A DNA stretch of 64,000 bases, from contig SHXO01000002.1 of assembly GCA_009693245.1 (NCBI GenBank), forward strand, positions 6,280-70,279. Reading direction: 5' to 3'. Shown here in pieces: positions 13,790 through 63,103 of this stretch (position 1 is the first letter of the stretch; every line of letters starts with the position of its first letter). The position numbers were made by a program, and so were the translations under genes. The notes beneath the pieces are model-generated. The model was not told the origin of the DNA. It was given only the letters and a program-made list of their open reading frames with translations, and did no database searches. The stretch is from Betaproteobacteria bacterium (lineage in GTDB: Bacteria > Pseudomonadota > Gammaproteobacteria > Burkholderiales > SHXO01).

Positions 13790-15253
13790 TCACCGCCTAC
13801 AACACTTCTTCTTACCCGGCGTTGCATACGCCCATTCGATCACGGCGTCGTGAAAGCCTTGCGAGGCGCGCGCGCTTGCGCCGTTGACTAGGCACACCAC
13901 GACCACCATGCGGTCCTCCTCGTCTTGAACGAAACCCACGCTGGCGCGCACGCCCTCTAGGTATCCCGTCTTGATGTGCGCGCGGCCGGTGGTGGGGCTC
14001 TCCTTCAAGCGCTTGCGCATGGTGCCGTCGATGCCGCTCAGGGGAAGGGACGCGATGAATTCGGGCGCGAGCGGAGATATCGCCGCCCACAGCAGCAGCT
14101 TGCCAAGATGTTCCGGGCTGATCCGCTCCGCGCGTGAGAGGCCCGATCCGTTTTCCACCACCAACTCCGGAAAATCGAAGCCCTCGCGATTAAGCCATTG
14201 CCTGAGCGCGTGGGCCGATTTCTCCGCGTTCAGGGGCGGCACGTTCTCGGCGAGACCTAGAGCGAGAAACAAGTGCCGGGCCATGACGTTATTGCTGAAT
14301 TTATTGATGTCGCGAATGAGTTCGGAAAGCGGTTCCGATCCATGGGTTGCAATCAATTGGGCATACATGGATCCGGTGCCATCGCTCGCTTGCCCTGAGA
14401 GAGTTCCCCCCAATTCGCGCCATAACTCGCGGAACACGGCCTCGATGTATCGCGGCGAGGACAGCGGGCTATAGTTCCGCGACGTTTCTCCGCAGGGGAT
14501 GGGAAAATCCCCCTTGAATAGCATTTGGCCGGAGCCCGCGTCGTGGACGGGGTCCTGCGGCCAATCGGCGCAGGCCATATCCACCGCGTGAAGTTGGTTG
14601 AGCAACGTGATCTGCGGCAGTGGCGGATGCATGAGTATTGCCACTTGGCCAGAATCCGCCTTCGGTATGAAATTGAGCCGAACGGCGTTGAAGTTCACCA
14701 GCAACGCATCGGGCAGCGCGTTGTAGGGACGCAGACTATCGCCATCGAAATCTCCGGGCGCGCCATTCACCGTTTCGAAAAAGGTGCGGTCCAGCACCAA
14801 CTCCCCGTGGATGTGCCGAACGCCCCGAGCGCGAACTTCGCGCAGCAAGGTCCAGAATTCCTCCAGGGTGAGCTTGGGATCCCCGGCCCCTTTAAATACG
14901 AGGTTTCCGTCCAGTACGCCGTCCTTGACGGGCCCGTCGGCGTACACCTCCGTGCGCCAGGAGTAAGCGGGGCCCAGGACATGCAAGCCCGCGAGGGTCG
15001 TGACGAGCTTCATGGTCGAGGCGGGATTCATCGGGCGCTGCGCGTTATGAGCTAACCGCGCGGGCTTGGTCCCTACCACGTGAACGTACAAGCCTAGGTC
15101 TTCCGCGCGCAAGCCATGCTCCTTCGCGGCGCGCGCCAAGGGCTCCGGAAGAGGGGCAGTGCGCGCCCCGCCCGCGCACAGGAAAAGTACCGCCAGCAGG
15201 AGTGCTTTTATAACTCCACGATGGTTCCGCGTTCGGGCACTTTGGTGCTCCAT
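13790..15253 (-). CDS. dacB: D-alanyl-D-alanine carboxypeptidase/endopeptidase (PBP4 family)
   Basis: Sequence is PBP4-like (PASTMKL SxxK motif, ...FSNNVMARH...). I place the start at MEHQ (15253), preceded by gaggag and followed by a signal peptide. The track ORF extends to 15355. Confidence 0.88.
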   Translation of the reverse strand: MEHQSARTRNHRGVIKALLLAVLFLCAGGARTAPLPEPLARAAKEHGLRAEDLGLYVHVVGTKPARLAHNAQRPMNPASTMKLVTTLAGLHVLGPAYSWRTEVYADGPVKDGVLDGNLVFKGAGDPKLTLEEFWTLLREVRARGVRHIHGELVLDRTFFETVNGAPGDFDGDSLRPYNALPDALLVNFNAVRLNFIPKADSGQVAILMHPPLPQITLLNQLHAVDMACADWPQDPVHDAGSGQMLFKGDFPIPCGETSRNYSPLSSPRYIEAVFRELWRELGGTLSGQASDGTGSMYAQLIATHGSEPLSELIRDINKFSNNVMARHLFLALGLAENVPPLNAEKSAHALRQWLNREGFDFPELVVENGSGLSRAERISPEHLGKLLLWAAISPLAPEFIASLPLSGIDGTMRKRLKESPTTGRAHIKTGYLEGVRASVGFVQDEEDRMVVVVCLVNGASARASQGFHDAVIEWAYATPGKKKCCRR

Positions 15254-16595
15254 CCCAACTCCTCTTGAATGACTTCGCTGAAAGCGATGGCCGCCGCGTA
15301 CTCGCCATGCACGATGTAGGTCTAGCGCGGCGGCGCGGGCATTTGCCGCATCCATTGCAGCAATCCTTCCTGGTCCGCGTGCGCGGACAAGCCGCCGATG
15401 GTATGAATGCTTGCGCGCACCGCAATCTCGTCGCCGAAGATGCGCACGCGGGACGCGCCATCCACCAAGCGCCGGCCAAGCGTACCTTGCGCTTGGAATC
15501 CCATGATGATTACACAGGACTCTTCCCGCGGAAGATTAGCCCGTAAATGAAACTTGATGCGCCCCGCATCGCACATGCCCGAGCCCGCGATGATGATGGC
15601 ACCTTGTTCGCGGCGGCTTAGCTCGCCGGATTCATCGGCGCTTTCGACGAAACGGATATTGAGATCGTGCTCTTGTTCGATTCCCGCTTCGAACATGGGC
15701 GCCACGTCCGGGTCGAGCACCTTCCAATGTTTTAGAGTGGCCGTGGTGGCCTTGGTGGCGAGTGGCGAATCCACGAATACATCCATGGCGGGTAAGCGGC
15801 CCTCCCGGTGCAAGCGGATGAGCAGATACAAAAGCTCTTGCGTTCGGCCCACCGCGAAGGCCGGAATGACGATATTGCCGCGTTTGAGCGCGAGGGTACG
15901 CGTGATGATGTCCACGAACTCATCGAGCGTCGCGGCCAGCTTGCGGTGCTGGCGGTTGCCGTAGGTGGATTCCATCACCAAAACGTCCGCTTGCGCCAGG
16001 GCTGCCGGGTCGCGCACCAGTGGCCGCCCGCGATTACCGATGTCTCCCGAGAATACTAGACGCCGCGTGACGCCATCTTCCGTGATGGCCAATTCGATGA
16101 ACGCCGCGCCCAGAATGTGGCCCGCCTCCCGGAAACAAGCGCGCACGCTAGGGCACGGAGAAAACTCTTCGTCATGGGAATGGGCCCGCAGTTGCGCCAA
16201 GGTTCGCAGTGCTTGAGTGGCCGTGTAGAGCGGCTCTCCCTGTTTAGCGCCGTGGCGCTGCTCCTTGCGCCGTTGCGCTTCGTACTCCTGAATGTGGGCC
16301 GCGTCGAGCAGCATGGGTTCGAGCAGGGCGCAGGTGGCGGCGGTCGCGTGGATGAGCCCTTGGAATCCCATCGCAATCAAACGAGGCAGCAGCCCGGAGT
16401 GGTCGATGTGGGCGTGTGTGAGCAAGACAAAATCGAGGCCGTGTATCCAGGGGCCCAATGCAACGCGGTTTTTCTCCGAAGCATCGCGCCCCCCTGAAAA
16501 AGCCCGCAATCCACCAGAAAGCGCGCGTCATTGCTCTCTAACAGAAAACAAGAACCGGTGACCTCTCGTGCCGCGCCGAGGAATTGGAGATTCAT
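15208..16595 (-). pseudogene. MBL-fold beta-CASP ribonuclease (RNA-metabolising metallo-beta-lactamase), disrupted by one frameshift and one in-frame TAG
   Basis: [36 protein letters not shown] (from ATG 16595) jumps frame at the G6 tract 16489-16494 into [14 protein letters not shown]...[11 protein letters not shown]... TAG at 15322-15324 is then followed in frame by TYIVHGEYAAAIAFSEVIQEELGWSTKVPERGTIVEL*, with TAA at 15208-15210. Confidence 0.8.
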
Positions 16596-16804
16596 GGGGG
16601 AGTTATCTATTCGTGGACATTCTACGCATTGGCAGCGTACCACCACGAGCGCTAGCACTTAATCGCGGCGAACACGGTTACATTTCAGGTTCAGGGATTT
16701 CGTCCGATGACATTGGCAGGGGACGCGAATTTTCGCGGTGTTGCGATATCAAGAACGCAAAGGCGGCCAGCCCATGCCGCGATTAATTACGGTGGAGGAA
16801 GGGT

Positions 16805-17425
16805 ATGGAATTTATCGATCGAATCGAACAACAACTCTCGGCTACCAAGCTGCCCTTGGTGGCGATCACCTTCGCGGCGGTGCCATGTCCCGACACTCCA
16901 GTCATTCTCACCTTGCACTGGCACGGTTTCATAAGCGATAAAATCGCCGACGTGGAAGGTGCCAACCCCGTGCGATTCACCTCGGTTCCAAGCTCAGCGC
17001 TGCAATTGAACGAACATTGGGACGATGTGGAAGATCTCGACCGCGCCACCTTGGACGCGGCCTGGGCCTTCGGCGCCTGGGATGTCGCCCGCGCCGAGCG
17101 GCCATCGTGCATGCGGCCAGGTGCGCAATCCCGGGAGGCGGTGGAGTGCCTGCAAGCCTTTGGCGGATTTCCCTTCGGAGCCCATGGCGACCAAGTGGTG
17201 GTTGCAGACGCGCCCGACGCGGATGAACTCATCAGCGTGGCAGCCAAGCGCGGTTACCTCATGTGGATGTTCCGGCCCGTGCATGGCGGCATTTGGAAGG
17301 ACGTCGCGGAGGATGCCACCCTCAAACCCGATGGCAAGCGCGAACCGCCTTGCCACTTGGAGCCCGTCCCTCCTGTTGGTAGGGGCATGCGCAAGACCGT
17401 CTATCGTTTGGGCGCCCCGCTCTAA
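16805..17425 (+). CDS. hypothetical protein
   Basis: 206-aa ORF with the RBS ggaggaagggt and coding-like GC3 bias. I recognise no family. Confidence 0.5.
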   Translation: MEFIDRIEQQLSATKLPLVAITFAAVPCPDTPVILTLHWHGFISDKIADVEGANPVRFTSVPSSALQLNEHWDDVEDLDRATLDAAWAFGAWDVARAERPSCMRPGAQSREAVECLQAFGGFPFGAHGDQVVVADAPDADELISVAAKRGYLMWMFRPVHGGIWKDVAEDATLKPDGKREPPCHLEPVPPVGRGMRKTVYRLGAPL

Positions 17426-17543
17426 CCTCACGGCCGAAGCCATAGCCGCCCGCGGGCGGTAGAAGTACCCCAGCTCGTTCTAACTGGCACTCCATCCCGG
17501 AATGCCCATAACTTCTTGTCCTATCCGGAATGCCCAGTTACTA

Positions 17544-17944: not shown

Positions 17945-17976
17945 CGCGCCTCTCCCCCTACTACCCACCAATTTAG

Positions 17977-19641
<1,665 letters not shown>

Positions 19642-21506: not shown

Positions 21507-21519
21507 ATAATCGGCCACC

Positions 21520-21833: not shown

Positions 21834-21909
<76 letters not shown>

Positions 21910-22003
21910 TTAGCTCTAGCTTTTGGTAGAAGTATTCACTAACTCGCTTCTACAAAAAAACCGCACTCTTCTACAAAACGAAGAGCGATGGGCTCGGCGG
22001 CGC

Positions 22004-22627
22004 TCAACGAAGCGGCTTGACCTTGTCGCCCTTTCGGTTTCGCGTGTATTGCTACGTCATCTCTTGGTGCTTGTGTCCGAGCAGCTTCTGCGCGCGCGAG
22101 GTCTTCCATATCGGTTGCTGACTTCGCGCGAATATCCCTGAATTGGAACGAGACGCCAGCGGCCGCGCGAGCTTTGTCGAAGCGAGAGCGCAGCGCGAAG
22201 TAACTCAAGCGTTGGCCGTTCTGATTTTGTATCGTAGAAAGGCCCGTAGATTTTCGCGGCTTGTTCAACATGCGGTCAATCAAGCTAGAAAGTTAGCCGG
22301 TGACTTCGATGCGCAACTTCTTGCCGTTTTTTTTCTGCGTGATCCAGAGCACACCGTCATGCACGTCGGCGCGTTGCAGTTTGAGCACGTCAGCGGGCCG
22401 CTGTCCGGTGAGATAGGCGAGGCCCATCGCGTTTTGCACGTGAAGTGCGCTTTCTCGTAAACCGCGAGGAACTCTGCGTCTTCAATGTAGCGATCCCGGC
22501 CCGGCTCGCGGTTTCCCTTCGCGCCCGCGCACGGGTTCGGCGCATCGGTGTAGCCCCACTCCCTCGCGCAGTTGAATACGTGGCTCAGTAGCGCCTTTTC
22601 GCGGTTCGCGCGGGCCTTGGCTTTCAC
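22004..22627 (-). pseudogene. tyrosine recombinase / phage-type integrase, heavily decayed
   Basis: Fragments lie in three frames: KAKARANREKALLSHVFNCAREWGYTDAPNPC...; LHVQNAMGLAYLTGQRPADVLKLQRADVHDGVLWITQKKNGKKLRIEVTG*LSSLIDRML...FQFRDIRAKSATD; and AQKLLGHKHQEMT*QYTRNRKGDKVKPLR*. There is a TAA at 22293-22295, a TAG at 22052-22054 and at least two frameshifts. Possible further N-terminal debris reaches about 22830. Confidence 0.8.
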
Positions 22628-22865
22628 TGAAGGCTACGCACTGGTTTCCAGTTCTCGGGAATTCGAACGTGCATTGCAACGCTCTCTTGTCCGCCATGCG
22701 ACACGAGGCGCCCTGCTGCGACGGTTGACCGAAGCGGGTCTGTGGGCGGGATGACAACGGGTACGTTTGTCGTTGCGCTCCACCAGTTCGAAACCATCCG
22801 CGCCAAACCGCTCCGGGAGCGCCAAGGGTCATAATGATGTTCCGAGATCACTCAGGTAAGAACCC

Positions 22866-24013: not shown

Positions 24014-25618
24014 ATGTCACAAAATCCAGAGTCCCATCCGCCAATCGAGACCGAGGAGCCCCCGCGGGAGGGCGTCTCGGGAACCATGGAATTTCTCATT
24101 GGGAGAATGCGGCGCAATGGGGACTTCCCCGCGCTTTCGAGCACCATAAGCGCGGTGAGCAAGGCAGCAGCATCGGAAATGGAGGGCATCTCCGCGCTCG
24201 CTGGCAACATTCTCAAGGACTTTTCCTTCACGCAAAAGCTGCTGAAGCTGGTGAACACCGCTCACTTTGGCCGTTTCGGCGGCACGGTCAGCACGATCTC
24301 GCGGGCCATCATGGTGATGGGTTTCGACCAAATTCGTACCCTTGCGGTGACCTTGTTGCTATTCGAGCATTTGCAGAACAACGCGCAGGCGGACGACCTC
24401 AAGGATGAGGTGCTGTCGGCCTACTTCAGTGCGCTCATCGCTCGCGACTTGGTGTCGAAGGCTGGCGTGCGGAATTCGGAGGATGCTTTCATCTGCGCCA
24501 TGTTTAGCCGGCTAGGTAAGCTTCTGGTGACTTTCTATCTGTACGACGAGCGCCTCGCGATCGAGCGTGCGATAAGCGCTGGCGCCAGCGAAGAGTCCGC
24601 ATCCATCCAGGTTCTGGGAATTTCCTATAGCGAGGCCGGAATGGGGGTGGCGAGCTCCTGGGGCTTTCCGGATAAGCTGGTTGCCTCCATGCGGCCTTTG
24701 CCGGAAAGCGAGATTCGCAAGCCTGCCGGGGATACGTCGCGTCTGTGCGTGCTATCGGAGTTGTCCTCCAGCCTAACGCAGCTCATCCGCGATGTGCCTC
24801 TCAGCAAACGCCAAGAAAGCGTCAAGGCCATGGTGGCGCGGTTCGGAAAAGGCTTGGGTATCACTGAGCAACACCTGGACGGCGCGGTGCTCAATACGGT
24901 GAACGAGATCGCCCGCGACGCCGGGATACTGAATTTTCGCACGGACAAAAGCGCTCTCTTCGATAAAGCCCGTAAATGGTCAGTGAAAGCCAAGACAAAA
25001 TCCGGCAACGATAGCGAGGCCGGTCTGCCAATGGAGGCCGTGCTCCTGGACGGCTCCAAGACGACCAGCGCGCCCGCCGCCGGGGCGGCTTCGGGCGCGG
25101 CCAGGCAAGCCATATTGAGCGCGGGATTCCAAGACATCAGCAACGCTTTGGTAGGTGATTTCAACCTCAACGATGTCTTGCGCATCATTCTCGAAACCAT
25201 GTACCGCGGTCTCGGATTCACGCGCACCATCCTTTGTGCCCTGGATCCGAAGAGCGATTCCCTCAAGGCTCGTTTCGGTTTCGGGCAAGACGTGGATCAA
25301 ATCATTCGTGCAGGCTTTTCCATTTCTCTCTCGCCCGCGCGCGATGTGTTCCACGCCGCCATCAGCAAAGGCGCGGACATCTACATCGATGATGTGCAAA
25401 GCGAACGCATACGAGATCACATTCCTGGGTGGTACCAGCAACTCATTCCCGCCAAATCCTTTGCGCTATTTCCCGTGATGATCGCCAAGAAGCCCGTGGG
25501 GTTGTTCTACGGGGATGCGAACACCGCGAAATCCCTGCGCCTGGAGGCCGGCGACATGGCGCAACTCAAGACGCTACGCAACCAGGCGGTACTCGCGATC
25601 AAATCTCAGAGCGCGTAA
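24014..25618 (+). CDS. HDOD domain protein with a C-terminal GAF-like domain (signalling protein)
   Basis: 534-aa ORF. The N-terminal half is HDOD-like (FPALSSTISAVSKAA...LLKLVNTAHFGRFGG...ISRAIMVMGF). The C-terminal roughly 160 aa has a GAF-like pattern. Confidence 0.7.
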   Translation: MSQNPESHPPIETEEPPREGVSGTMEFLIGRMRRNGDFPALSSTISAVSKAAASEMEGISALAGNILKDFSFTQKLLKLVNTAHFGRFGGTVSTISRAIMVMGFDQIRTLAVTLLLFEHLQNNAQADDLKDEVLSAYFSALIARDLVSKAGVRNSEDAFICAMFSRLGKLLVTFYLYDERLAIERAISAGASEESASIQVLGISYSEAGMGVASSWGFPDKLVASMRPLPESEIRKPAGDTSRLCVLSELSSSLTQLIRDVPLSKRQESVKAMVARFGKGLGITEQHLDGAVLNTVNEIARDAGILNFRTDKSALFDKARKWSVKAKTKSGNDSEAGLPMEAVLLDGSKTTSAPAAGAASGAARQAILSAGFQDISNALVGDFNLNDVLRIILETMYRGLGFTRTILCALDPKSDSLKARFGFGQDVDQIIRAGFSISLSPARDVFHAAISKGADIYIDDVQSERIRDHIPGWYQQLIPAKSFALFPVMIAKKPVGLFYGDANTAKSLRLEAGDMAQLKTLRNQAVLAIKSQSA

Positions 25619-25622
25619 CGCG

Positions 25623-28200
25623 TTACGTGAGCCTCTCGGCGGCAGCCGGAGGGATCTCTCGCCCGCCTTGCGTGCGCCGCTGGCGGCAGGGCACGACGAA
25701 AGTAAACACCGAGCCTCCCGCTGGATTGTGAGAGGCGTTAATGTAGCCTTCGTGCTGGCGCAAGATCTCGCTGCATGCCGCCAGATTGAGCCCTGCTCCG
25801 CCCACCCCATGGGCGTCATTCCCAACCGGGTGTTCGAAGACCCGCTCCAGCTCACCCCCTGGAATACTCGTACCCTCGTCGGTGACACTCACTTCGGCGG
25901 CTTCCAAGATTCCCATGTACTGCGCCCCATGTCCTTCGGGTAGCCAGGACTGCGCGACACGCACCGCAATACGCTTGCCCGCCGGGGTGAATTCGTGCGC
26001 ATTGGACAGGAGGATCCGCATCACTTGCCGGATGCGCTCCGGATCGCACCAGGCATATACCGGGAAGCTGGAGCATTCCAAGACGATATTGACTCCGCGC
26101 CGCACCGCCACCGCGCTTAGTTCGTCCGCCGCCGCGCGTACGATGGCATTCATCTCGTGAATGCCGAAAGCGCTAACCCCCGCGCTTAGCTTGGAGATGC
26201 CGAGCAGCTCGCCCAGCGAAGACAGCAAGCGCTGCCCAACCTCATCGATCTTGCTGGCGAGAAACTCGGAATTGGGTTGAGCTCCAACGGCTACCCGCGG
26301 GACATGAACGGTATGGGGATTGGCTTCCAACTCGCGCACGCGTGACTGAAGTTGCTTGACCTCAACCTCGGCGGCGGCGATATCCGTGGCGTCTCGTATC
26401 ACGCAAAGAAACATCCGCTCTTCGCCGAACATCGTCTCGCTCACGGCGGTCTCCATGGGGAATTCCTGGCCGCCGGCACGAAGACCGGCTAATATGGGCA
26501 GCGGAACAGACGTGTCTTGCAAGCCGCGCTCCCATAGGCCGCGATTCTTCTCCGGCATCAACGCGCGGAGATTCTGGCCCGGCAACTCTGATTGCTCGAA
26601 TCCAAACATGCGGCAGGCGGCGGCATTGGAGGATTGAATAACGCCCTGTTGGTTGGCGATGACCACGCGCGCGCTCAGGGAATCGAACAGGACTTCAAGC
26701 CTCTCTTCGATCTCCTTGCCCGCGGCCTCCGCATGTTCGGCTCGCTTCAGCGCTTCCTGCAACGCTTGCGCGGATTCCTTCGCCTGCGAAATATCTTGCA
26801 CTACCCCAATGAAACGCGACAGCCGGTCTTGTTCTCGAATGGGCACCATCTTGATGCGAACCCATTTGACCCAGTCGTCGTCCTTGTGAATACGGTGTTC
26901 GCTTTCAAATTCCGTCCCGCGAATGAGCGCGGTCTGAAAAGCCTGCGCCACGGCTTGCCGGTCGTCGGGATGAATGCGCCTCGACCAACCCCAGTCTTGC
27001 GCTTGGTCCTGGGTTAACTCAACCAACGCTTCGCAGCGCTTGTTAAGGCGCACGGTTTTACTGTCGGAGGAGATCTCCACGATGGCTACCGGGGCATGGT
27101 CATGGACGATCTTCAACTCATCGGTTCTAACCCCAAGCTGCTGCTCCAGGTCTTGGGCGGATTCCTTCAAACGCCGGTTCGTCCTCGACAAGCGCAGCAT
27201 GAGGACGAAAGGGGAAAAACTCGCCACGAGAGCGCTAACGCCCAATACATTGGCCCAGATCCATGCTGTGGTATCCCGGCTCAGGCGCGCGCTCAGCTCC
27301 CAAGTGCGCCCAAACACTTGAAGACTCACCGATGCGTGGGCGAAATTGTCCGGCTTCACTCCGGTGGAGGGCGGGTAACTTGCAAGTGGCAACGACCCGC
27401 GTTGGCCTTCACCCGCATCTCGTATTTCGATCTGCTGGCGCGTGGTTTCGGGGTTCTCGGTGGCGCGCAAGAAATCCGTGGCGGAGAACGCACTGAAGAC
27501 CCAGCCCCGTACCATCCCCAAGGGCCGCCACACGCTGGGTCCGATATCCGATTCCCAATAGACGGGGAAGTACAGCATCGCCACGGGGTTCGAGTCTTTC
27601 TCCCGAGCGAGGGTAATCGGCGCGGAGAGTACCGCAGCATTTGCCTCGCCTGCCCGCGCCATGGCGGCTTGAAGGGTTGGTTCCGTCCACATATCGAAGC
27701 CCGCCATGCGGGCATTGGCGCCTTCCCCCGGTTCCAACAGGAGTAGCGGCGCGTAGACCTCGCGCTTGCCCGAGGGATAGATGTTGAAGTCCCGCAGCTT
27801 TTGCTCGCGCATGCGGTTGGTGAGTTCATCTTTTTGCCTGCGCGAAATGACCTCCGCGAAACCCAGGGTCCCAGGCCCGTGCGAGGGAAGATCCAGCCGG
27901 GACGCATACTTTCTCCAGCGCTCCCGCCTCACGTTGGCGTCACCTTCGAACAATGCGCTGGCACCCGCCAGAACCTGCTCGTGGGAGCGCATGCGCTCCC
28001 ACGAGCTTGAGCCGCATCTCATTTACGTAGCTCTGGGCGCGCACCTGGTCTGCATTCCTAGCGTGATGCAGGGCGCCCCACCACACGCCAGCCGTGATCG
28101 ATAGCGATGCAAGCAACACACTCCATGCCACGCGGTGGCGGCGTAGACTCGATGTCATGCTGGCACCTGGCCGCGCACTTACCTCCATTCGTTCGTTCAT
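25623..28200 (-). pseudogene. CHASE-TM-PAS-PAS-histidine kinase-like sensor, split by a +1 frameshift near the N-terminus
   Basis: ORF 27940-28200 encodes the N-terminal TM helix and the start of CHASE (...WSVLLASLSITAGVWWGAL...QSYVNEMRLKLV). ORF 25623-28022 continues as ERMRSHEQVLAGASALFEG..., followed by PAS domains and HATPase_c (LLSNAHEFTP, GGAGLNL). The frames differ by one extra G in the GGG at 27998-28000. Confidence 0.8.
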
Positions 28201-28348
28201 GTTTTCGCTCTAACTCGCCGAGAAGAACTTCCCACGTCTATTACGGCGGCATCCGGCGGTTCCGAAGCCCCGCAACGGATCGTCCGGGGAGGATTTTTGT
28301 TAATCCGTATCCAAAAGCAGACGGATGGATGCCCGCGCCGGAACGGCG

Positions 28349-30175
<1,827 letters not shown>

Positions 30176-31565: not shown

Positions 31566-32650
31566 AACCCACCATAGCCTCCAAGCTCGCCCAACTCTCG
31601 GCGCGCTTGGAGGAGTTGAATGGCCTGTTGAGTGCCGAAGGCATCACGGCCGACATGGATAATTACAAGAGGCTCACCAAGGAGCACGCCGAAGTGGCGC
31701 CCCTGGTGGAGTTGTATCGCACCTACCAGCACACCTTGAAGAACATCGAGTCCGCCGAGCTGATGCTTTCGGATCCGGAAATGAAGGAACTGGCGCAGGA
31801 AGAAATCCTGTCCAACCGCGCGCGGGTCAACCAGTTGGAAGATGAGTTGCAGCAAAGATTGCTCCCCAAGGATGCGAACGACGAGCGCAACATCTATCTC
31901 GAAATTCGCGCCGGTACTGGAGGAGACGAATCCGCGCTCTTCGCGGGCGATTTGTTTCGCATGTATACGAGATTCGCGGAGCGCAGGCGCTGGAGCGTGG
32001 AGGTCGTGTCGCAGAGCCTCGGCGACGTGGGCGGTTTCAAGGAAATCATCGTTAGCATTGCCGGCCAAGGCGTCTACTCGCGCCTCAAGTTCGAGTCCGG
32101 CGGTCACCGCGTGCAGCGCGTCCCGGCAACCGAGGCCCAAGGCCGCATCCACACCAGCGCCTGTACCGTGGCCATCATGGCGGAGGTGGATGAAATCAGC
32201 GACGTCACCATCAATCCGGCGGATTTGCGTATCGATACTTTCCGCGCTTCGGGCGCTGGCGGCCAGCACGTGAACAAGACCGAATCGGCCATCCGGCTCA
32301 CTCACCTGCCCACGGGCATCGTGGTGGAATGCCAGGACGACCGCTCGCAGCACAAGAACAAGGAGCGCGCGATGTCGCTACTCGCCGCGCGCATCAAGGA
32401 CAAGCAGGTACGCGAGCAGCAGGCCAAGGAAGCGGCCACGCGCAAATCCCTAGTGGGCAGCGGTGAGCGCTCCGACCGCATTCGCACCTATAACTTTCCG
32501 CAGGGGCGCGTGACGGACCACCGCATCAACCTCACGCTGTACAAAATCGACGCCATCATGGATGGTGACCTCGGCGAGATCTTGGACGCCCTGTCGGCCG
32601 AACACCAGACCGAGCAGCTCGCCGCCATGGCCGAAGAACAGGCGGCTTAG
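31562..32650 (+). CDS. prfA: peptide chain release factor 1
   Basis: 362-aa ORF with the PAT tripeptide region and the GGQ motif ([14 protein letters not shown]). Its ATGA overlaps the hemA stop. Confidence 0.98.
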
Positions 32651-32655
32651 GACCT

Positions 32656-33522
32656 CTGAGCCCTCCTGCCTCCCTCGCCGCCCTGCTCACTAGAGATGCC
32701 TCACGCATCGCGCAGGCTCTAGGCCTTGCCCCGGAGGACGCGGCGAACGAAGCGCAAATCCTGCTGGCCAGCGCCGCGAGAAAATCTCGCGCATGGGTCA
32801 TGGCGCACGGACAGGATGCTCCAAGTGTCTTGGGCTCAACCCCCTACGAGCAATGGATCGCCAGGCGCGTTGGAGGGGAGCCCATCGCCTACATCCTTGG
32901 CCGCCGTGAGTTTTACGGCCTCGAATTGGAAGTCGGCGAACATGTTCTCATTCCCAGGCCCGAGACCGAGCTCCTGGTTGATCTAGCCCTTGACCATCTG
33001 CGCGAAGCCCGGCCATGCAAGGTGCTCGACCTTGGCACCGGTAGCGGCTGCATCGCGATCGCCATCGCCGCCCATGCGCCGCATTGCCATGTGCTGGGCA
33101 CTGATTCATCGTTGGAGGCCTTGAGCACCGCCGCGCGAAATATTCAGCGGCATGGCCTGGAGAACGTGGACTTGCTGCATAGCGATTGGTACGTAGCGCT
33201 AGGCGCGATGCGCTTCGGCGTCATCGTCTCCAATCCGCCCTATATCGCGGCCGCTGACGCGCATCTCACCCAGGGCGATTTGCGTTTCGAACCGCAGGGG
33301 GCGCTAACCCCGGGCACTAAGGGCCTCGAAGCGATCGAGCGCATCGTCACCGGCGCACAGGGTTTTCTGAGAGAAGACGGCAGGCTCATGATCGAGCACG
33401 GTCATGACCAAGCTCAGGCGGTGCGTGAGATCCTTGAGCGGAACGGTTTTCAGGGCGTAACGGCCGCACGTGACCTTGCCGGAATCGCACGGATAGCCAT
33501 GGGGCGCATGCGTCCCGATTGA
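32656..33522 (+). CDS. prmC: release-factor glutamine N5-methyltransferase PrmC (HemK)
   Basis: The catalytic part from ATG 32800 (GEPIAYILGRREFYG, LDLGTGSGCIA, NPPY) is certain. The HemK N-terminal domain is encoded in frame upstream (open from 32569), but no ATG, GTG or TTG is available there. I tentatively use CTG 32656. Confidence 0.8.
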   Translation: MSPPASLAALLTRDASRIAQALGLAPEDAANEAQILLASAARKSRAWVMAHGQDAPSVLGSTPYEQWIARRVGGEPIAYILGRREFYGLELEVGEHVLIPRPETELLVDLALDHLREARPCKVLDLGTGSGCIAIAIAAHAPHCHVLGTDSSLEALSTAARNIQRHGLENVDLLHSDWYVALGAMRFGVIVSNPPYIAAADAHLTQGDLRFEPQGALTPGTKGLEAIERIVTGAQGFLREDGRLMIEHGHDQAQAVREILERNGFQGVTAARDLAGIARIAMGRMRPD

Positions 33523-41477: not shown

Positions 41478-42308
41478 ATGAATGCTTCTACCTTCGCACG
41501 ACTTGTCTGTGCATTTTTTCTCTCGGCAACTACCTTCCTAGTCATGGCGCAAACGGACGCCCCAGCCGCCGAAGCGCAGGCCAAGCGCCCGCCCCGCCCT
41601 GGCCGCGTCTACATCAAGGACGTGGAGGGCATCTGGATGGCCCAGCAGTACATGAATGCGCTCAAAGCCACACGCTCACCGCGAGCGGCGGCACGCAAGT
41701 CCCAGCCCATCGTCATCCAACTCAAGAAAGAGAACTGGATCTACCCCATCTTGACCACGAATTTTCGCTCGGCGGTGTTGCAATTCATGATCGAAATCGA
41801 GCCGGATAAAAAGCCGCAATCCTGGCGCTTCGTCACCGCCAAGACCGAAGGCATCGTCAGTTCGAGCGACGTGATCTACAGCTACTTCACGGGCAAGCGC
41901 GGCATGACCGGTGCCTTTGAAACCTTGTCCCTGAAGGAACCGCACTTCGCCCAGCGCAAGAGCACTCTCTTCGCGCGGCTGGCCGAACCTCTGGAGGTCT
42001 TCGTCAATAAGAATACCGTGGCCGGCAAATACGAGGACGAGGACGGCAAACCCTACGAATTTAGCGGCGAGGGAGATGCCATGTTTCCTGATCGCAAATT
42101 CGCCTATGAAGTGCTGTTGGATACGGCGCAAGCAAGCTGTGACGTGCTAACGAGCCACCACGAGAAGGAGCCCGAAGGCAAGGAGCGCATCGGCTTTGCC
42201 GCCAAGGGCGATAAGCTTCTCTTGTACAAGACGCAATCCCTGTCCAAGGGTACGTGGCGTTGCGAAGCCAAACCCTTCGCCACGTTAACCCGCGGCGAAC
42301 AAGCTTAA
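41478..42308 (+). CDS. secreted hypothetical protein
   Basis: 276-aa ORF with a signal peptide (...FLVMAQTDAPA). I recognise no family. It lies 19 nt after the amidase. Confidence 0.55.
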   Translation: MNASTFARLVCAFFLSATTFLVMAQTDAPAAEAQAKRPPRPGRVYIKDVEGIWMAQQYMNALKATRSPRAAARKSQPIVIQLKKENWIYPILTTNFRSAVLQFMIEIEPDKKPQSWRFVTAKTEGIVSSSDVIYSYFTGKRGMTGAFETLSLKEPHFAQRKSTLFARLAEPLEVFVNKNTVAGKYEDEDGKPYEFSGEGDAMFPDRKFAYEVLLDTAQASCDVLTSHHEKEPEGKERIGFAAKGDKLLLYKTQSLSKGTWRCEAKPFATLTRGEQA

Positions 42309-42319
42309 GGAGAAAAGCC

Positions 42320-42775
42320 ATGTTGAATTACATTAAGACCGTATTACTAGGTGCCGCCGTCGCATTCGCCACACAAGCCCTCGCGGGTAACTGCGAAGAC
42401 ATCAACGCCCACGAAGCGCAGAAAGCCGAAGATGCCCGCTACGCCGCGCAAATGAATGACGACTTCGCCGCGATGGATAAGCTCTTCGCCGATGATTTGG
42501 TTTACACGCACTCCAGCTCCGTGGTCGATAACAAGAAGACCTATATCGAATCCATGACCTCGGGCACGGTGAAGTACAAGGTGATGCGCCGCTCGGATGT
42601 GACAGTGCGCACCTTCGGATGCATCGCCATCCTTACCGGCCTGGGGAATTTCGACGTGAGAGTGAAAGGGCAGGATCTTTCCGTGGAGTTGCGCTTCTCG
42701 AGCACATGGATCAAGCGCAATGGCGCGCCGCAATTCGTTTCCTGGCAGGCCACCCGCACGCCTGCTAAGCAGTAG
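42320..42775 (+). CDS. secreted NTF2-like protein (DUF4440/SnoaL-like)
   Basis: MLNYIKTVLLGAAVAFATQALA is a signal peptide. The DDFAAMDKLFADDLVYTHSSS pattern is typical of DUF4440. This is the internal ATG of track ORF 42254-42775, with the RBS aaggag. Confidence 0.65.
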   Translation: MLNYIKTVLLGAAVAFATQALAGNCEDINAHEAQKAEDARYAAQMNDDFAAMDKLFADDLVYTHSSSVVDNKKTYIESMTSGTVKYKVMRRSDVTVRTFGCIAILTGLGNFDVRVKGQDLSVELRFSSTWIKRNGAPQFVSWQATRTPAKQ

Positions 42776-42825
42776 CCGCCGGTTTTCCCTGAACCGCGAT
42801 TCCATCTTGAGCCCGTTGAGGCGCC

Positions 42826-44268
42826 ATGTCCGAAGCCAAAGAGCGACAGCCCCAGGAGGGCGTGCAGCAGGCGTTGCAACAAATCGTTGCCCTGCTGGAC
42901 AAGCAAAAGCTGGTCGAAAGCCTCGTGCACAAGCAGGAGATGCCGCGCCACGACCTAGTGGAATCCCTGGTCCACAAGCAACACCTCGCTGAACTTCAGA
43001 AGAAGCTCGACACCCTTCACGCCGCCGATATCGCCCACATCCTGGAGGCCTTGCCCCTGGATGAGCGGCTCTATGTTTGGGATCTGGTCAAGGCGGAGCG
43101 CGAGGGCGATATTTTGCTCGAGGTCTCCGAGCCTGTCCGCGAGACGCTCATCGCCTCCATGGAGCCGCAAGAGTTGTTGGCGGCGGCGGAATCCCTCGAT
43201 ACCGATGAACTGGCCGACCTCGCGCCCGACTTGCCGCAAGACGTCATGCAGGACGTCTTCAAGTCCCTTTCGCTCGAGGAGCGCGAGCAGTTGCGCGCCG
43301 CCATGTCCTACGAGGAAGACACGGTGGGGGCATTGATGGATTTCGATCTCGTCACCATACGCGAAGACATCACGCTCGAAACCGTGCTGCGTTACCTGCG
43401 CCGGCTGGACGAGTTGCCTGACCACACCGACCAATTGTTCGTTGTGGACCGCCGCGGGCGCCTGAAGGGGGCTTTGCCCATCAAGCGATTGCTGGTGCAA
43501 GACCTCGACAAGACCGTGGCGGAAGTGATGCACACCGGCATGTTGATGCTGCGCGCGCGCGACCGCGCCGAAGAGGCCGCCCAGGCCTTCGAACGCTACG
43601 ACTTGGTGACCGCGCCCGTCATCGACGAGCGCGCCAACCTGGTGGGCCGCGTGAGCGTGGACGCGGTGCTCGACTACGTGCGCGAAGCGGCCGAGAACGA
43701 ACGTCTCAATCTGGGCGGCTTGCGCGAAGAGGAGGATATCTTCGCCTCGGTGTGGGATGCCGCCAAGAACCGTTGGGCTTGGCTGGCCGTGAATCTGGTC
43801 ACGGCCTTGGTGGCCTCGCGCGTCATCAGCGTGTTCGAGGGCAGCATCGAAAAACTAGTGGCGCTGGCCGCCCTCATGCCCATCGTGGCGGGCATCGGCG
43901 GGAACTCCGGTAACCAGACCATCACCATGCTGGTGCGCGCCATAGCGCTCGGGCAGGTGAGCCGCATGAACGCGAAGCGCTTGCTGGCGAAAGAACTGCT
44001 GATCAGCTCGCTCAATGGCTTGGTTTGGGGCGGCATCATGGGTTTGATCGCCGTGGCGCTCTATGGTAGCTGGCTGCTGGGCTTGGTGATGGCCATGGCC
44101 ATGACATTGAATCTCGCCGTGGCGGCGGTCTTCGGTTTGGGAATTCCGTTGGTCCTGGACCGCTTCGGCCGCGATCCGGCAGTGGGCTCCAGCGTCATGA
44201 TCACGGCTATCACCGACAGCGGCGGGTTCTTTATTTTTCTCGGGCTGGCCACGCTGTTCTTGCTTTGA
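42826..44268 (+). CDS. mgtE: magnesium transporter MgtE
   Basis: 480-aa ORF with an MgtE N-domain, tandem CBS domains and a C-terminal TM domain carrying PIVAGIGGNSGNQ. Confidence 0.95.
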   Translation: MSEAKERQPQEGVQQALQQIVALLDKQKLVESLVHKQEMPRHDLVESLVHKQHLAELQKKLDTLHAADIAHILEALPLDERLYVWDLVKAEREGDILLEVSEPVRETLIASMEPQELLAAAESLDTDELADLAPDLPQDVMQDVFKSLSLEEREQLRAAMSYEEDTVGALMDFDLVTIREDITLETVLRYLRRLDELPDHTDQLFVVDRRGRLKGALPIKRLLVQDLDKTVAEVMHTGMLMLRARDRAEEAAQAFERYDLVTAPVIDERANLVGRVSVDAVLDYVREAAENERLNLGGLREEEDIFASVWDAAKNRWAWLAVNLVTALVASRVISVFEGSIEKLVALAALMPIVAGIGGNSGNQTITMLVRAIALGQVSRMNAKRLLAKELLISSLNGLVWGGIMGLIAVALYGSWLLGLVMAMAMTLNLAVAAVFGLGIPLVLDRFGRDPAVGSSVMITAITDSGGFFIFLGLATLFLL

Positions 44269-44403
44269 GAAGGGCGGCCATCACGAATGTCTCACGCTTC
44301 ATCACGCATTGTTCAATTTCGCGTTGGCTTCCGAACCGCGGCGGCTTAGCTAGCTCAAAGCCGCATCCGCGCCATCCCGGATTACCGTATAACGAGGCTA
44401 CGC

Positions 44404-48627: not shown

Positions 48628-48720
48628 GGGACGATCTCTTATTCTCGTTAATCTCGTATCACTCTACTGTTGGCAACCTTGGAGAAGAATTTGATCCGCC
48701 AAAGCTCCGTCCAGGGGATT

Positions 48721-48780
48721 AACAAGGGGCCACCCCTTGTTCCTTCCTGGGGGATAAACAAGGGGAGCTCTCCCCTTGTT
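48721..48780. repeat. two tandem near-identical perfect hairpins
   Basis: aacaagggg-cca-ccccttgtt (48721-48741) and aacaagggga-gctc-tccccttgtt (48757-48780). Each is preceded by gggat(t/a)a. Confidence 0.7.
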
Positions 48781-49182
48781 CGTAGCATGAATTTTGTCCG
48801 GCACAACAGTCACCCTTTTTGGTTTCAGCTGCGCCCGCTTAAGACTCACTCCGCCGGGGATTGTGCCCCAGCTCACAGAGGCGCGCAAACGCTTCCGTAA
48901 AGGTTGAGCAATCCGTGGTCCAAATGACCAACAGAAATGCTGCCGGCCCCATGTGGCATGCCGCTGGGAACGTAAGGCCTTGATTGGTCCGAACAAGTGC
49001 CTCTGGACTTGCACGCCCGGGGGCGCCATGCCCGGGCTTGCGCATCCTCTAGATTGCCGAGATTTCGGTTCCGGCGTAGATATTTCTCTTAATTTAAGGC
49101 GGCGCTAACGAGGGGAATTATTTGGTATCTCGTCACAGGCGAACGACAACAACATTCCACGATATTGAAGGGGGCTAGGATC

Positions 49183-49650
49183 ATGAGGAGGGTATTGGTA
49201 GCGGTGGATGGTTCCAAGAGTTCGGACCGCGCGGTGGAGGAAGCGGTCAAGACGGTCAAGCACGGGACCAATGCCTAAGTGCATCTGGTCAATGTACAAC
49301 CCAGGGTCTTGAGCGACGATGCGCTAATCGGTTTACGAAAGGAAGACATCGAGCGCTATTACTACGAGCAAAGCTCCAAGGCGCTGTCCTGGGCGGAAAA
49401 AATACTGCGCGAGAACAGCGTGCCGTTCACTTCTCACCGCATCGTGGGCCCGGCCGCGCAGAGCATCGTCGCGCAAGCGCGCGACCTTCAATGCGACGCC
49501 ATCGTGATGGGTACGCGAGGGCTAAGCCGCATCAACGGATTGAGCTTAGGCTCGGTGTCCATGAAGGTATTGCACTTATCCGACCGTCCGGTGACGCTCG
49601 TACGGGGCGACCCTCCCGTGGAATTCAGCGGACGTTTGAGCGCGAGTTAG
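49183..49650 (+). pseudogene. universal stress protein (UspA family) with an in-frame TAA at codon 32
   Basis: ATG 49183 (RBS agga) gives MRRVLVAVDGSKSSDRAVEEAVKTVKHGTNA-TAA(49276-49278)-VHLVNVQPRV...AIVMGTRGLSRINGLSLGSVSMKVLHLSDRPVTLVR. The track lists only the 3' part, from GTG 49279. Confidence 0.8.
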
Positions 49651-50857
49651 GGTCGGCTGACAACCCTAGAGCTCCAGAATCCAACGCGTGACAGCGCCGG
49701 TTTCCTCCTTGCTCAGACTCGCCTTGACGTGGCCCTCTTCGGCTTTGGACAAGGTAATGATGCGATAGCGCTCGCGGTGCGGCTTGACCCCCAGGTCAAG
49801 GGCACCGCGAGGTGCGCTACGGGCGCCGCCACTATGTTATTGATCGATGGTGGGGAAAGATCGATTGCGCGCGCAAGATCATGGATTTCGAGAATCAAGT
49901 TAAGGTGAAGATGGATTTTGGGAATGTGTGGCCATCATACTGAGTTGCTAACCCATAAGGATTGAGGCGACGCGAAGCGTCGTTTCAATCCGCAGTTCAA
50001 GAAGCCCCGGGGGCGGACGGCGGTGTGTATTTGGGCGCGAGCCCGCCGAGCTGCTCGGCGCCGGATGAAGGAAGGAAAAGCAAACCAGCGGTTTGCGGAA
50101 GAGTGTGGTTCTTGGGTTTGGTTTGTGATTTGGTTTGGGTGTGGCTTTGGATGTTGACGTGCCCTCCCCTTCTGAACCGCCGAGTAACGCAGGAGCGAAG
50201 GGGGATGTCGCCGAGGACTGTTCGACGGCCGCGCGCTTTTTGCGCGGACTAGTTCCGCAGGCGCCCATCGCTTCGAGTAACGCAGGGTACCCTGCAAGGG
50301 GCGGGGCAGTAGGGGCGGCCTTTTTTCGCTTACCTTTTTTGGCCGCGCAAAAAAGGTGAGTAGCTGCCGGGCTACCCCCGGCGACTTTTCTATCCTGGTA
50401 GATTAACTAATCAGACGCACAGTCCGAGACTAATCAATACGGCGCCCCCATCCCAACCTTCCCCCGCAAGCAGGGGAAGGAGCAAACAAGCGGTCATCGG
50501 CATTGGCAGCGAATGGTCACGCAGAGCTTGATCAGGCGAAAGTTACTCCAAGGCGCGGCGGAAAATCAGCGCGCAGCCATGCCGTCTTTCTAGTGCTCGC
50601 ACAGCCCTCGCGCAAGAACATGCGACAAGGAAGAACAAGGGAGCGTGTATACATATCCGGCACTTTGACGGTAAGAATGCTGCCCGTTTATGCAGCGAAG
50701 GCACGACAGATTCTCGCCCCGCGCGATTAGCGCTTATGCTTTAGCGGCTTCAAGAACCCCCAGCGATGGTCACGCGATTCTCATTGCCGCGCCGGAAGCC
50801 TGGATGCTTTCCCGGGGCCCTGGAAGAGACTCCACGGCGCGCGCGTCGCGAATTGCG

Positions 50858-50957
50858 GCCATGAACCTGTAGTGGCGTCTTTTCCCTCATCCCCATCCCT
50901 TCTCCCACGGGGAAAAGGGAGCGTCGTGCTCTCCGCCCGAGCGGAGAGGTTCATGGC
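50858..50957. repeat. MITE-like 100-bp element bounded by an 11-bp inverted repeat
   Basis: gccatgaacct (50858-50868) pairs with aggttcatggc (50947-50957). These enclose a REP-like core and a perfect hairpin ctctccgc-ccga-gcggagag (50929-50948). Confidence 0.5.
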
Positions 50958-51219
50958 TAGGTGCGCGCACCACTTGCGAGTCGCATGCCTGGCTGCGAGA
51001 CGTCCAAACCTATCCTTCGCAGGGTCAACCGCCAAAGCCCCGCAAGCGAGTGATCGCCATGGGAGATAGGCGCGGCTGCTCTTCATAGTGCAATGAGCCA
51101 CCGCCTGCCGCACGTGAGCCAAAACCATGGATAATTGCCGGAGTTACAGGGGCCGTAAAAAGAGTGAGGGGGCAGCAGGTGGCAGGCAAGGATTTATCGG
51201 CGGGGGAGCGGGTCGTCCA

Positions 51220-59947: not shown

Positions 59948-60449
59948 GGCTCAGCAAGATATTGAAATGGAGTAGCAAGATTAGCAGGGAAGGCGCCCAC
60001 GACACTTACCGCCTCTGGGATACCGGCACATTTTTCGACTACCCGGGCAAACTCGAAAGACAATCTTTCGGCACCCCTGCTCGCACTTTGCTATTTCTGG
60101 CGCCCGGCCATCTGCGCGACTTGCAGGGATTCTCACGGCGGCTTCTGAGCGAGTGGTTTGCATTATTGCCCGATGGGGCGGTGCTAGCCGCCCACAACCA
60201 CCACGAGGCCGGCGGTGGCGTTTTCGACGAACTCCTGCGGCTCGCGTGGAGGAAGTGCCGCGCAACGCGCAGTTGATAGTCATCGGTCGCGCCCATGTTC
60301 CGCAGGAGTTGCTGCGCGCGTTCTCGGCCGGTCACCGCGGCCGAATCGGTTGGGAGGCCCTTCGACTGACCGCGCCCACCGCAGCGGCAGCAGGAACCGG
60401 GCAGCTATTCCGAATCAATCAAGAAGTGGCCAGCCAGAATTCAACCATG

Positions 60450-61265
60450 CTACTTCTTCTTCAGCCGGATCTGCATCATGGCATCGGGATCGCTCACGCT
60501 GCTAAATGACCCATCGTCGTTGGCCGCGAGCGCGAGATCTTCGCCGTCGAAGGTGACTTTGACGCCCTGCGCGTGCTGCTTGTAGGTGCAAGGCCCCGTC
60601 ATCGGACCGAAAGAAATGTAGCACTTGCTGGCTGGCTGAAATTACAGTTTGACCGTCCCGTAGGCATTCTCCCAGTTTCCTTGCAGCTTCACCGCCGGGG
60701 GTTTTTCTGACGGGGCGTTTGAGGCGGACACGGATTTGTCTTTTTTCCTCGCCGGTTGTGCTGCACCGAGCAACGCGTTGCATTCGATCCATCCAATGGT
60801 GGTGGCGCTTGGCGTCTTCACTTGGCGCCAATTGCCATTGACCTTCACAACATTGCCGCTTTCCTTGAAGTTGCCATCCACCCAGCTCACGGGCTCGCCA
60901 ATCTTGATGGGCGCATTAGGCGTGCCGGCCTTTTGCACTAAACGCAACTTCTGAGTGTTCACCGGAACCTGTTTTCCGCTAGGTATCAACAGAAGGACAT
61001 AGCCGGGCGCATCCGGTTCAGCGATGACTTCCGCCAGCGTCGGTCCCATTCCAGTGGTCAATTCAACGAGGTCACCCACGCTCGCGCGGTTGGTTTGCGA
61101 TGCTGCCCAGGGTGAGATTGCGCAGAATGCTAACGCTACCGCCACGCGTACGGCTCTATTTTTCCGTGCTTGCTTCTCCCGCACAAGATTGGCGGCGCTT
61201 GGATGCGCCAAAAGGGATTGCTCGCACTCGCGAGCGCGGCTAACGAAAGCGGCACTAATGCGCAT
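60450..61265 (-). pseudogene. secreted hypothetical protein interrupted by an in-frame TAA
   Basis: The 207-codon ORF (signal-like VAVALAFCAISPWAA) ends ...NAYGTVKL-TAA(60642-60644). The same frame continues for 63 codons with coding-like composition: FQPASKCYISFGPMTGPCTYKQHAQGVKVTFDGEDLALAANDDGSFSSVSDPDAMMQIRLKKK*, with TAG at 60450-60452. The start is uncertain. Confidence 0.55.
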
Positions 61266-61426
61266 CGCTATCGGTTATCACTTTATCGCTGTCCCATCGA
61301 AGGGTCAATCCAATCCCTGGCTAGCGATAAGCCGCGCTCAACTCGTGCACGGGATTCCTGGCACCAGCCTATCTGCCAGGTTCAGGTCACTAACTTTCTT
61401 AAGAGCCGCATCGGTCACCCTGTTGT

Positions 61427-63103
61427 TCAGGCCGAAAATTCCCGCAACACTTGACCCGCCTTGGGCGCATCTCTGAGGATGCCATTCGCACCGGCAACGC
61501 GCCGGCCGTTGACCCACACTCCATGCACACCCGTCGCCGGTGTGGTCAATCGCGATCCGCCCGCCGGTAGATCGAACACGCGGCTGGAAGGCCCGCGCCC
61601 TATGGTCTTCGGATCGAACAACAGCAAGTCGGCGGGTTTTCCGATCGCGATGCTTCCGCGATCCTTCATGCCGAATAACGCGGCCGGTTCGGAAGTAAGT
61701 TTGCGCACCGTCTGTTCCAGCGGCATGAGCTTCTTCTCGCGCACCCAGTACCCCAGAACATGCAAGCCGAAACCGGCATCACACAAAAAGGTGAGGTGCG
61801 CGCCGGCGTCCGAGAGCGAGACGATGGCATTTTCGTCGCGCATCATCCTCCCCACCGCATCCTCGTCGGAATTGAGCAGCGTGGCGGTAAACAAGGTGTC
61901 GAGGTTTTATTCCATCGCCAAGTCGAGCATGACATCCACCGGATGCCCGCCCGCCTCTCGCGCGAGCGCGGCAATCGACTTGCCCTCATAGGCCGCATGT
62001 TTCGCATCGGCGACCTGGGCGACATGGGCTTTTTCCCATTCGCCGGTGAACATCCGCCGGCTGCGTTCTTCGAGTTCCTTCTTCAGCATGCCGCGCCAGG
62101 CGCGATCGGCGAGCGTGCTGCGAAAGGACTTCTCATCCATGGCCATTAGCGGCTGCCACACGCGCAAACCCTCGAACACGTAAGGTTCGTGCATGGTGAA
62201 CTCGAAATTCAGCGGGCAGGGAGACACCGCCCCATGCATCCTGTTGCCTCGCTTGCGAGCCGCCCGGATATTGCCGAGGTCTTCGAACGTGGCTTCCGGG
62301 GCGAGATTGGAATGCAGGAGCGCGGCAACCAGGTAGGGCCGGTTGGAGGCGGCGCATAAATTCTCGATCCAGGGCATCGGAGTATCCGCCGCCTTAGTCA
62401 TCATCAGCAAGCCCTTGCCGGCATCGCGCAAAGCCGCGGACAGGGTAGTCATTTCATGATCATCGGCCAAGCGCGAGGGCATTGGAATGCCGGCCTCGCC
62501 GTTATGCTGGCCAGAACGGGTGGTGGCGAAACCCACCGCGCCCGCCTCCATCGCCCCGGCTACGATTTTGCGCATGATTTTGACTTCATCGGCCGTGGCG
62601 GTGCGCTTCGGCGCATCCTCGCCCAGCACGAAGGTGCGCACGCTGGAATGACCAACAAAACACGCCACGTTCGGGCCGACGCCTTTTTTCTCCAGCATGT
62701 CCAGATACTGCGGATAGGACTCGAAGCCCCAGTCGATGCCAGCGCGCAGGGCATTGAGCGACATACCCTCGACGTGCGTCAGATTGCGCATGGTCAGATC
62801 GCGATCCGCCGGCCGGCACGGAGCGATGGTGAAGCCGCAATTGCCCATGACGATGGTCGTCACGCCCAGCGCGGGTGAAGGATTGGCAAGCGGGTCCCAG
62901 GTAATCTGCGCGTCGTAGTGCGTATGGGTATCGATGATGCCAGGCATCAGCGCCAGGCCACCGGCTTCCACAGACTGCACCGCGGCGCCTTCGACCCTGC
63001 CAATTGCGCAGATGTTTCCATCCTTGACCGCCACGCTGGCCTGTGCCGGCGCAGCACCTGAACCATCGTAAAGCGTGGCGTTGCGAATAATCAAATCATG
63101 CAT
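61427..63103 (-). pseudogene. N-acyl-D-amino-acid deacylase (D-aminoacylase) family amidohydrolase, interrupted by an in-frame TAA
   Basis: MHDLIIRNATLYDGSG...PGIIDTHTHYD... runs up to ...DVMLDLAME-TAA(61907-61909)-NLDTLFTATLLNSDEDAV...SDAGAHLTFLCDAGF...DLLLFDP... The two track ORFs (61907-63214 and 61427-61894) share one frame and together make one family-typical protein. Confidence 0.85.

Follow-up and report, generated by a model that had tools for sequence, protein, structure and literature searches.

Broken accessory genes in a 64-kb window from an uncultured Lake Baikal betaproteobacterium: recent gene loss with a possible G:C>T:A component

The locus and its source

We analysed a window of 64,000 nucleotides (positions 6,280 to 70,279 of contig SHXO01000002.1, assembly GCA_009693245.1) in which six genes, those for a beta-CASP RNase, a tRNA-Phe-linked integrase, a CHASE kinase, a universal stress protein (usp), a secreted hypothetical protein and a D-aminoacylase, are broken by in-frame stops, frameshifts or both. 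The window is part of a metagenome-assembled genome (MAG), and its sequence is the consensus of a population rather than that of an isolate; the MAG proteins are listed in NCBI as MSQ58151–58190, with locus tags EXR36_00590–00660. Of ten window proteins compared by exact sequence, seven are identical to proteins of this MAG (MSQ58151–58185), all on a contig of 72,276 nt. An original prediction, made from the letters alone, had proposed that about 7 of about 53 genes in the range 15208–63103 were interrupted, with GAA or GAG (Glu) turned into TAA or TAG by G:C>T:A transversion wherever the lost residue could be guessed. At each coordinate the bases described were indeed present, every interrupted frame resumes downstream as the same protein, and six genes are disrupted relative to intact full-length orthologues; on recount the range holds about 42 genes, and the fraction becomes about 6 of 42. 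The density of broken genes exceeds chance expectation: for at least five broken non-mobile genes among 40 in this one 64-kb window, P = 0.001–0.05 if 2–5% of genes are assumed to be pseudogenes normally.

The genes in the window (coding for a SoxB-like 5'-nucleotidase, flavocytochrome c sulfide dehydrogenase, GroESL and RecQ, as well as HemA, PrfA, MetH, MgtE, ArgS and PriA) fit a sulfur-oxidising betaproteobacterium; the putative host is an uncultured one from oxic deep Lake Baikal water, with an ArgS only 80% identical to that of the closest GTDB genome. A Logan contig of the metagenome SRR8561391 matches window positions 42007–44403 at 99.96% identity. This run and SRR8561390 are winter samples of Lake Baikal from 1350 m and 1250 m, respectively (PRJNA521725; PMC7678222), the lake's hypolimnion being permanently oxic and very oligotrophic (PMC9948471); ~150-nt Illumina reads and IDBA-UD assembly are described for that group's later Baikal samples (PMC9948471). 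Logan reassembled the raw runs using another assembler, and its gene calls are included in the protein collection that we searched. The features concerned are as follows.

15208–16595, minus strand: beta-CASP/metallo-beta-lactamase RNase pseudogene with two lesions (three-frame translation gives one protein across the lesions)
15322–15324, minus strand: in-frame TAG replacing Glu in the same gene (GAG in contig L001)
16489–16494, minus strand: G6 run (C6 on the plus strand) with a −1 frameshift in the same gene (codon alignment with L001)
21834–21909, plus strand: tRNA-Phe (GAA anticodon), attachment site of the island with the dead integrase (ARAGORN, Rfam)
21939–22860 (outer ends approximate), minus strand: remnant of a phage integrase (tyrosine recombinase) gene, interrupted by two in-frame stops and two changes of frame (pieces in three frames)
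25623–28200, minus strand: CHASE-PAS histidine kinase gene split by +1 G (Pfam, homologue alignment)
27998–28000, minus strand: GGG run holding the extra G of the kinase gene (the corrected frame matches a homologue)
49183–49650, plus strand: universal stress protein gene with an in-frame TAA at 49276–49278 (translation, relatives)
60450–61265, minus strand: secreted hypothetical gene with an in-frame TAA at 60642–60644 and several conserved residues replaced (homologue alignment)
61427–63103, minus strand: N-acyl-D-amino-acid deacylase (amidohydrolase; here D-aminoacylase) gene with an in-frame TAA at 61907–61909 (homologue alignment)

Lesions in the six genes

The D-aminoacylase gene offers the clearest stop. 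Its TAA stands where all 120 homologues (558 aa) have Glu, with GAA in the DNA of the two nearest relatives (L084 and L085), just as had been proposed from the family pattern. The rest of the gene is also unusual: at five columns that never vary elsewhere it alone carries a change, compared to a mean of 0.31 and a maximum of 4 in the 120 homologues, making it the top outlier among the 121 sequences. NCBI splits it (61427–63214) into two hypothetical proteins, MSQ58190 and MSQ58189. The neighbouring secreted hypothetical gene is similarly affected: its TAA replaces a Glu found in 94 of 100 homologues, and among the further changes that only the window shows at conserved columns are C147R, R166L and D202Y, the Cys that is lost being conserved in 98 of 98 homologues. 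D202Y (60662) is polymorphic between assemblies, and two Logan haplotypes of the gene differ by further replacements at conserved sites. Selective constraint on both genes has thus been relaxed after their inactivation.

In the usp gene, the codon at the stop site is GAA in three contigs (L088–L090) that encode one of its relatives, confirming from relatives' DNA that TAA has replaced Glu; the 155-aa relatives read GTNAEVHLVNVQ, and Glu occupies the site in four of them. The two halves are annotated by NCBI as ordinary proteins, MSQ58176 (31 aa) and MSQ58177 (123 aa). A scan of genome contigs found through ArgS yielded no orthologues of usp, the secreted hypothetical gene or the D-aminoacylase gene.

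For the beta-CASP gene, an intact orthologue coding for 462 aa with Lactamase_B, Beta-Casp and RMMBL domains lies on the European Nucleotide Archive (ENA) contig L001. Codon alignment with it upheld both predicted lesions. The window reads CAGGG-GGGCGC against CAGGGAGGACGC in L001, the sole indel of the gene alignment, so that the G6 run is one base short; the TAG at 15322–15324 aligns with GAG in L001 (PRETYVVHGE) and is therefore a coding-strand G>T change, the residue lost, which the original prediction had left unnamed, being Glu once more. The ratio of nonsynonymous to synonymous divergence (dN/dS) from L001 is 0.11. The gene is intact in the more distant L001 and L002 and absent from L094 and L095 (~87% nucleotide identity), where ~150 nt occupy its site. 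It has, then, already been deleted in close relatives, and gene loss is under way.

The kinase gene carries a frameshift. Its 799-aa open reading frame (ORF) contains CHASE, PAS and HATPase_c domains (Pfam), with the N-terminal 67 codons, including the membrane anchor, in another frame; in homologues, the CHASE match begins at about residue 60–70. Changing GTGGGAGCGC to GTGGAGCGC restores ...RLKLVERMRSHEQ..., and the kinase corrected by one G aligns with the homologue P0368 from residue 1, with 66% identity over the N-terminus and no gap across the frameshift junction, as expected if the GGG at 27998–28000 holds the additional G that had been postulated. NCBI annotates only the 799-aa ORF (25623–28022; MSQ58157), and does not mark it as a pseudogene. 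Separately, codon 457 of this ORF (26653–26654) is AAC (Asn) in the contig and GCC (Ala) in the Logan contig of SRR8561390, a tandem double substitution.

In the integrase remnant, the predicted TAA, TAG and two frame changes are all seen. Its homologues are proteins of 311–327 aa with 70–77% identity and the PF00589 domain. At the TAA (22293–22295), 99 of 120 homologues have Glu, so that this part of the Glu proposal stands; the other part, an original 'MT[E]QY' at the TAG (22052–22054), is ambiguous, with Glu in 112 and Gln in 8 of 120 homologues and Gln in six of the seven nearest. This second stop may accordingly have been CAG>TAG, a transition. The remnant lies next to tRNA-Phe, the only tRNA in the window (ARAGORN) and the sole addition from Rfam and repeat scans. 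Close relatives differ in what they carry 3' of the same tRNA gene, an hsdM methylase gene in L094 and an HTH gene in L095, and the site is a probable hotspot of island insertion.

Damage is not spread evenly over the window. Alignments with 49–80 relatives revealed no unusual residue at conserved columns in ArgS and two in PriA, and there are no in-frame stops in the window's housekeeping genes. Moreover, the dN/dS values of the broken genes against their orthologues (0.06–0.11) equal those of intact pairs, from which it follows that inactivation was recent. The population carries six genuinely disrupted genes, all of them disrupted recently.

Mutational spectrum of the lesions

The proposal that the stops arose as GAR>TAR, a G:C>T:A class, holds for five of the six premature stops, each a Glu codon GAA or GAG changed to TAA or TAG, with GAA or GAG seen directly in relatives' DNA for three; it is weakened by the integrase stop that is possibly CAG>TAG, by a missense spectrum that does not depart significantly from its null and by an ordinary pattern of fixed divergence. 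From the codon usage of the window under four rate models, Glu is expected to account for 12–20% of single-base nonsense changes and G:C>T:A for 22–38%, so that the probability of at least five in six is 1e-4 to 2e-3 for Glu and 0.003–0.03 for G:C>T:A. Even among the G:C>T:A routes to a stop, Glu makes up only ~53% of the target.

Beyond the stops, we examined changes that could be polarised in the broken genes, namely the stops together with those missense changes that fall in conserved columns of two genes, for the D-aminoacylase and the secreted hypothetical protein. G:C>T:A accounts for 10 of these 18, compared to 16–21% in a missense null for which we took the singletons that relatives show in argS, priA and genes nearby, the excess being significant only with the stops included. 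A MutT-type A:T>C:G signal is not seen among them (1 of 18, F391V). Variation within the population gives a further view. The contig and the Logan contigs differ at 21 sites in ~15 kb, 11 of them transitions and 10 transversions, and all 10 transversions exchange C with A or G with T (P < 1e-3 even if this class made up half of all transversions); the three that homologues allow to be polarised are G:C>T:A.

We judge the likeliest account, with fair rather than high confidence, to be a real and evolutionarily recent inactivation of dispensable genes in a natural population whose recent mutation was seemingly rich in G:C>T:A. The nuclease, sensor kinase, stress protein, amidohydrolase, secreted protein and prophage integrase no longer enjoy the protection of selection and are in the course of being lost, the window capturing the point-mutation stage of a decay that in close relatives has already ended, for one of these genes, in deletion. 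The stops and the within-population variation suggest that recent mutation in the lineage would be rich in G:C>T:A, the class that unrepaired 8-oxoguanine produces, and this input might stem from a weakened MutM/MutY pathway or simply from oxidative exposure. With the deletion of the beta-CASP gene already complete in close relatives, ordinary accessory-gene loss becomes the main story. The original prediction is largely confirmed as an observation and partly supported as an interpretation.

Several points weigh against this account. Missense changes alone give G:C>T:A in 5 of 13, with P = 0.07–0.14 against the 16–21% null. The G:C>T:A excess that had been anticipated in substitutions relative to other genomes did not appear when this check was run, the share being 5–15% and G:C>C:G the commonest transversion; given this ordinary share among fixed differences, any bias must be recent or confined to sites under weak or no selection. 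Neither mutM nor mutY is in the window, and numbers are low, a single stretch of 64 kb having provided 6 stops, 18 polarised changes and 21 polymorphisms. The substitution error typical of Illumina four-colour chemistry is likewise an A/C or G/T miscall, so that some of the differences between the contig and the Logan contigs could be noise. Finally, the coverage of a second assembly takes in neither the usp nor the beta-CASP lesions, which have no second-assembly sighting: around usp, contigs from a DUF1178 look-up break at the 48.65–48.84 kb repeat, and for the beta-CASP site a GroES look-up gave relatives without the gene and no Baikal contigs.

It is possible, if doubtful, that the pseudogenes are ordinary, that no special mutational process produced them and that so many Glu-to-stop changes came together by chance in a small sample. 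Under uniform rates no other residue supplies as many nonsense changes as Glu (20%), the one stop that may be a CAG>TAG transition breaks the run, and both the missense spectrum and the normal G:C>T:A share in long-term divergence are what such a view would expect, as are the integrase and toxin–antitoxin remnants, which would be routine debris. Chance alone must nevertheless produce at least five Glu among six stops (P = 1e-4 to 2e-3 under the four rate models) and, in addition, all 10 transversion differences in a single class (P < 1e-3), and about five broken non-mobile genes among ~40 is high for a free-living bacterium.

Independent assemblies and the reality of the lesions

That the stops are not assembly errors, as had been argued from their being substitutions, is supported by the Logan assemblies, which reproduce three of the lesions. 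L086 (SRR8561391) spans 61044–62035 with six mismatches, none at the D-aminoacylase TAA. L087 (SRR8561390) spans 25007–29291 with five mismatches and no gaps, and the same extra G must therefore be present in its copy of the kinase gene. The TAA of the secreted hypothetical gene occurs in both L092 (SRR8561391) and L093 (SRR8561390), and so in two separate samples and libraries. Wherever a Logan contig reaches across a lesion, in either sample, it has that lesion too. In the 15-billion-protein collection, reconstructed intact alleles of usp, the secreted hypothetical gene, the D-aminoacylase gene and the beta-CASP gene found no match.

These results bear directly on whether sequencing, library or assembly artefacts (G>T changes from oxidised DNA or dye cross-talk, and homopolymers miscounted in a low-coverage metagenome consensus) could have created the lesions, which we consider improbable. 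The sequence is that of an Illumina MAG that is not a GTDB species representative, the frameshifts of the beta-CASP and kinase genes are both in G runs, and G>T is the classic oxidation artefact; the lesions share base-change class and technology with oxidative G>T library artefacts and with Illumina G/T and A/C miscalls. Sequencing artefacts of this class are, however, of low frequency and random, whereas the lesions recur in independent assemblies and spare essential genes, three being reproduced by Logan's different assembler and one of these in two separate libraries. Errors should hit genes regardless of their importance; that invariant residues are further damaged in the broken genes but not in the essential ones argues against an artefact, as does the segregation of D202Y between assemblies as a haplotype variant. 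We reject the artefact explanation wherever a lesion was open to checking. Two narrower forms of it were also discarded. A generally error-riddled contig is ruled out by the clean argS and priA genes. Clustered read-end errors at the D-aminoacylase stop, suggested by four window-specific changes at most 25 nt away, are not borne out, the clustering being non-significant (Poisson P ~0.07, by our own arithmetic) and the changes being present in the Logan contig as well.

Nor is it at all likely that the contig is a chimeric population consensus into which broken minority variants were stitched while most cells keep intact genes. The contig does differ from the Logan sequences by 0.03–0.6% and switches between two Logan haplotypes at 60662, but the finding of the lesion in every overlapping Logan contig from both samples, the lack of an intact allele in the protein collection and the TAA common to both haplotypes of the secreted hypothetical gene all speak against it.

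Least credible of all is that the stops are read as Glu, by a Glu-inserting ochre or amber suppressor tRNA or another low-efficiency mechanism, with GAR>TAR nearly neutral and accumulating at Glu codons: this would account for stops at Glu far above expectation, for Glu (only ~53% of the G:C>T:A target) over Tyr, Ser, Gly and Cys, and for stops that are all TAA or TAG and never TGA, yet 27 of 44 intact genes end in TAA or TAG, frameshifts also affect the beta-CASP and kinase genes, the D-aminoacylase and secreted hypothetical genes are under relaxed constraint at invariant residues, essential genes have no in-frame stops, and the only tRNA in the window is tRNA-Phe. Outright stop-codon reassignment is ruled out by the same terminator usage (TGA 17, TAG 14 and TAA 13).

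Relation to known systems

Recent loss of dispensable genes through point mutation, as we read the window, would add a new case to a kind of process already known. The closest documented parallel appears to be Bordetella hinzii evolving in a patient, in which a G:C>T:A excess, mutM/mutY mutations and ~200 new pseudogenes have been described (PMC8302680). That organism too is a betaproteobacterium with a G:C>T:A excess and with pseudogenes from stops and indels. In B. hinzii, however, mutM/mutY mutations and raised rates were measured in clonal isolates, whereas our data come from a 64-kb piece of a free-living environmental population, in which, unlike in B. hinzii, fixed divergence is without G:C>T:A bias. 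Inactivation by point mutation, relaxed constraint and deletion in sister lineages are shared with host-restricted bacteria such as Rickettsia (PMC1779305) and Sodalis (PMC11137140). Unlike in such reductive evolution, we are dealing with a free-living planktonic organism that keeps intact housekeeping genes and a low dN/dS, and the figure for the density of broken genes comes from one window alone.

Were the pattern genome-wide, a free-living deep-lake chemolithotroph population would have been caught shedding accessory genes under a G:C>T:A-rich mutation input, and the public Baikal reads could show how fast, and through which intermediates, planktonic bacteria lose genes. It would also become testable whether permanently oxygenated cold water or a repair defect shapes the natural mutation spectrum. 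Public annotation lists most of the fragments that we traced as separate intact proteins, and gene counts and metabolic inferences drawn from this MAG are therefore slightly inflated.

Other features of the window

The original prediction had also counted a vapC reduced to 52 codons within 15208–63103. It was not found: in that range, neither a Pfam search of 10 small ORFs nor two scans for PIN motifs nor tblastn queries with the PIN and Phd proteins of a relative gave anything. The sole PIN-like remnant, 'MLLDANV' followed by a stop near 10,090, lies beyond it, in what resembles a vapBC toxin–antitoxin remnant on the minus strand (~9980–10330; '...AVIEANTITPAK', a stop, 'MLLDANV' and a second stop) just upstream of an MFS transporter gene.

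Two segments flank the usp gene. Upstream, 48647–48839 is a ~190-nt element with ~73% similarity to an insert that separates the beta-CASP gene from a 206-aa gene in L001 and L002; L091 from Logan and a Baikal contig from ENA both end at this element, which, given also the similar insert in relatives, looks like a multi-copy intergenic repeat. Downstream, the ~1.5 kb of 49650–51127 contain no convincing ORF and no Pfam or Rfam match, and tblastn of the relatives' usp-flanking genes gave no remnants at 49.65–51.1 kb; the segment could be old decayed sequence.

GroEL (17986–19641) is intact, with Asp (GAC) and 'VARCAL' for 'VTRSAL' at positions that are usually conserved, and the protein collection lacks this exact sequence, although it includes neighbouring proteins. 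Finally, in HemK/PrmC (32650–33522), the N-terminal domain is coded in frame 5' of the first ATG (32800), in a stretch without ATG, GTG or TTG; the gene may either have lost its start codon or begin at a non-standard one, for instance CTG.

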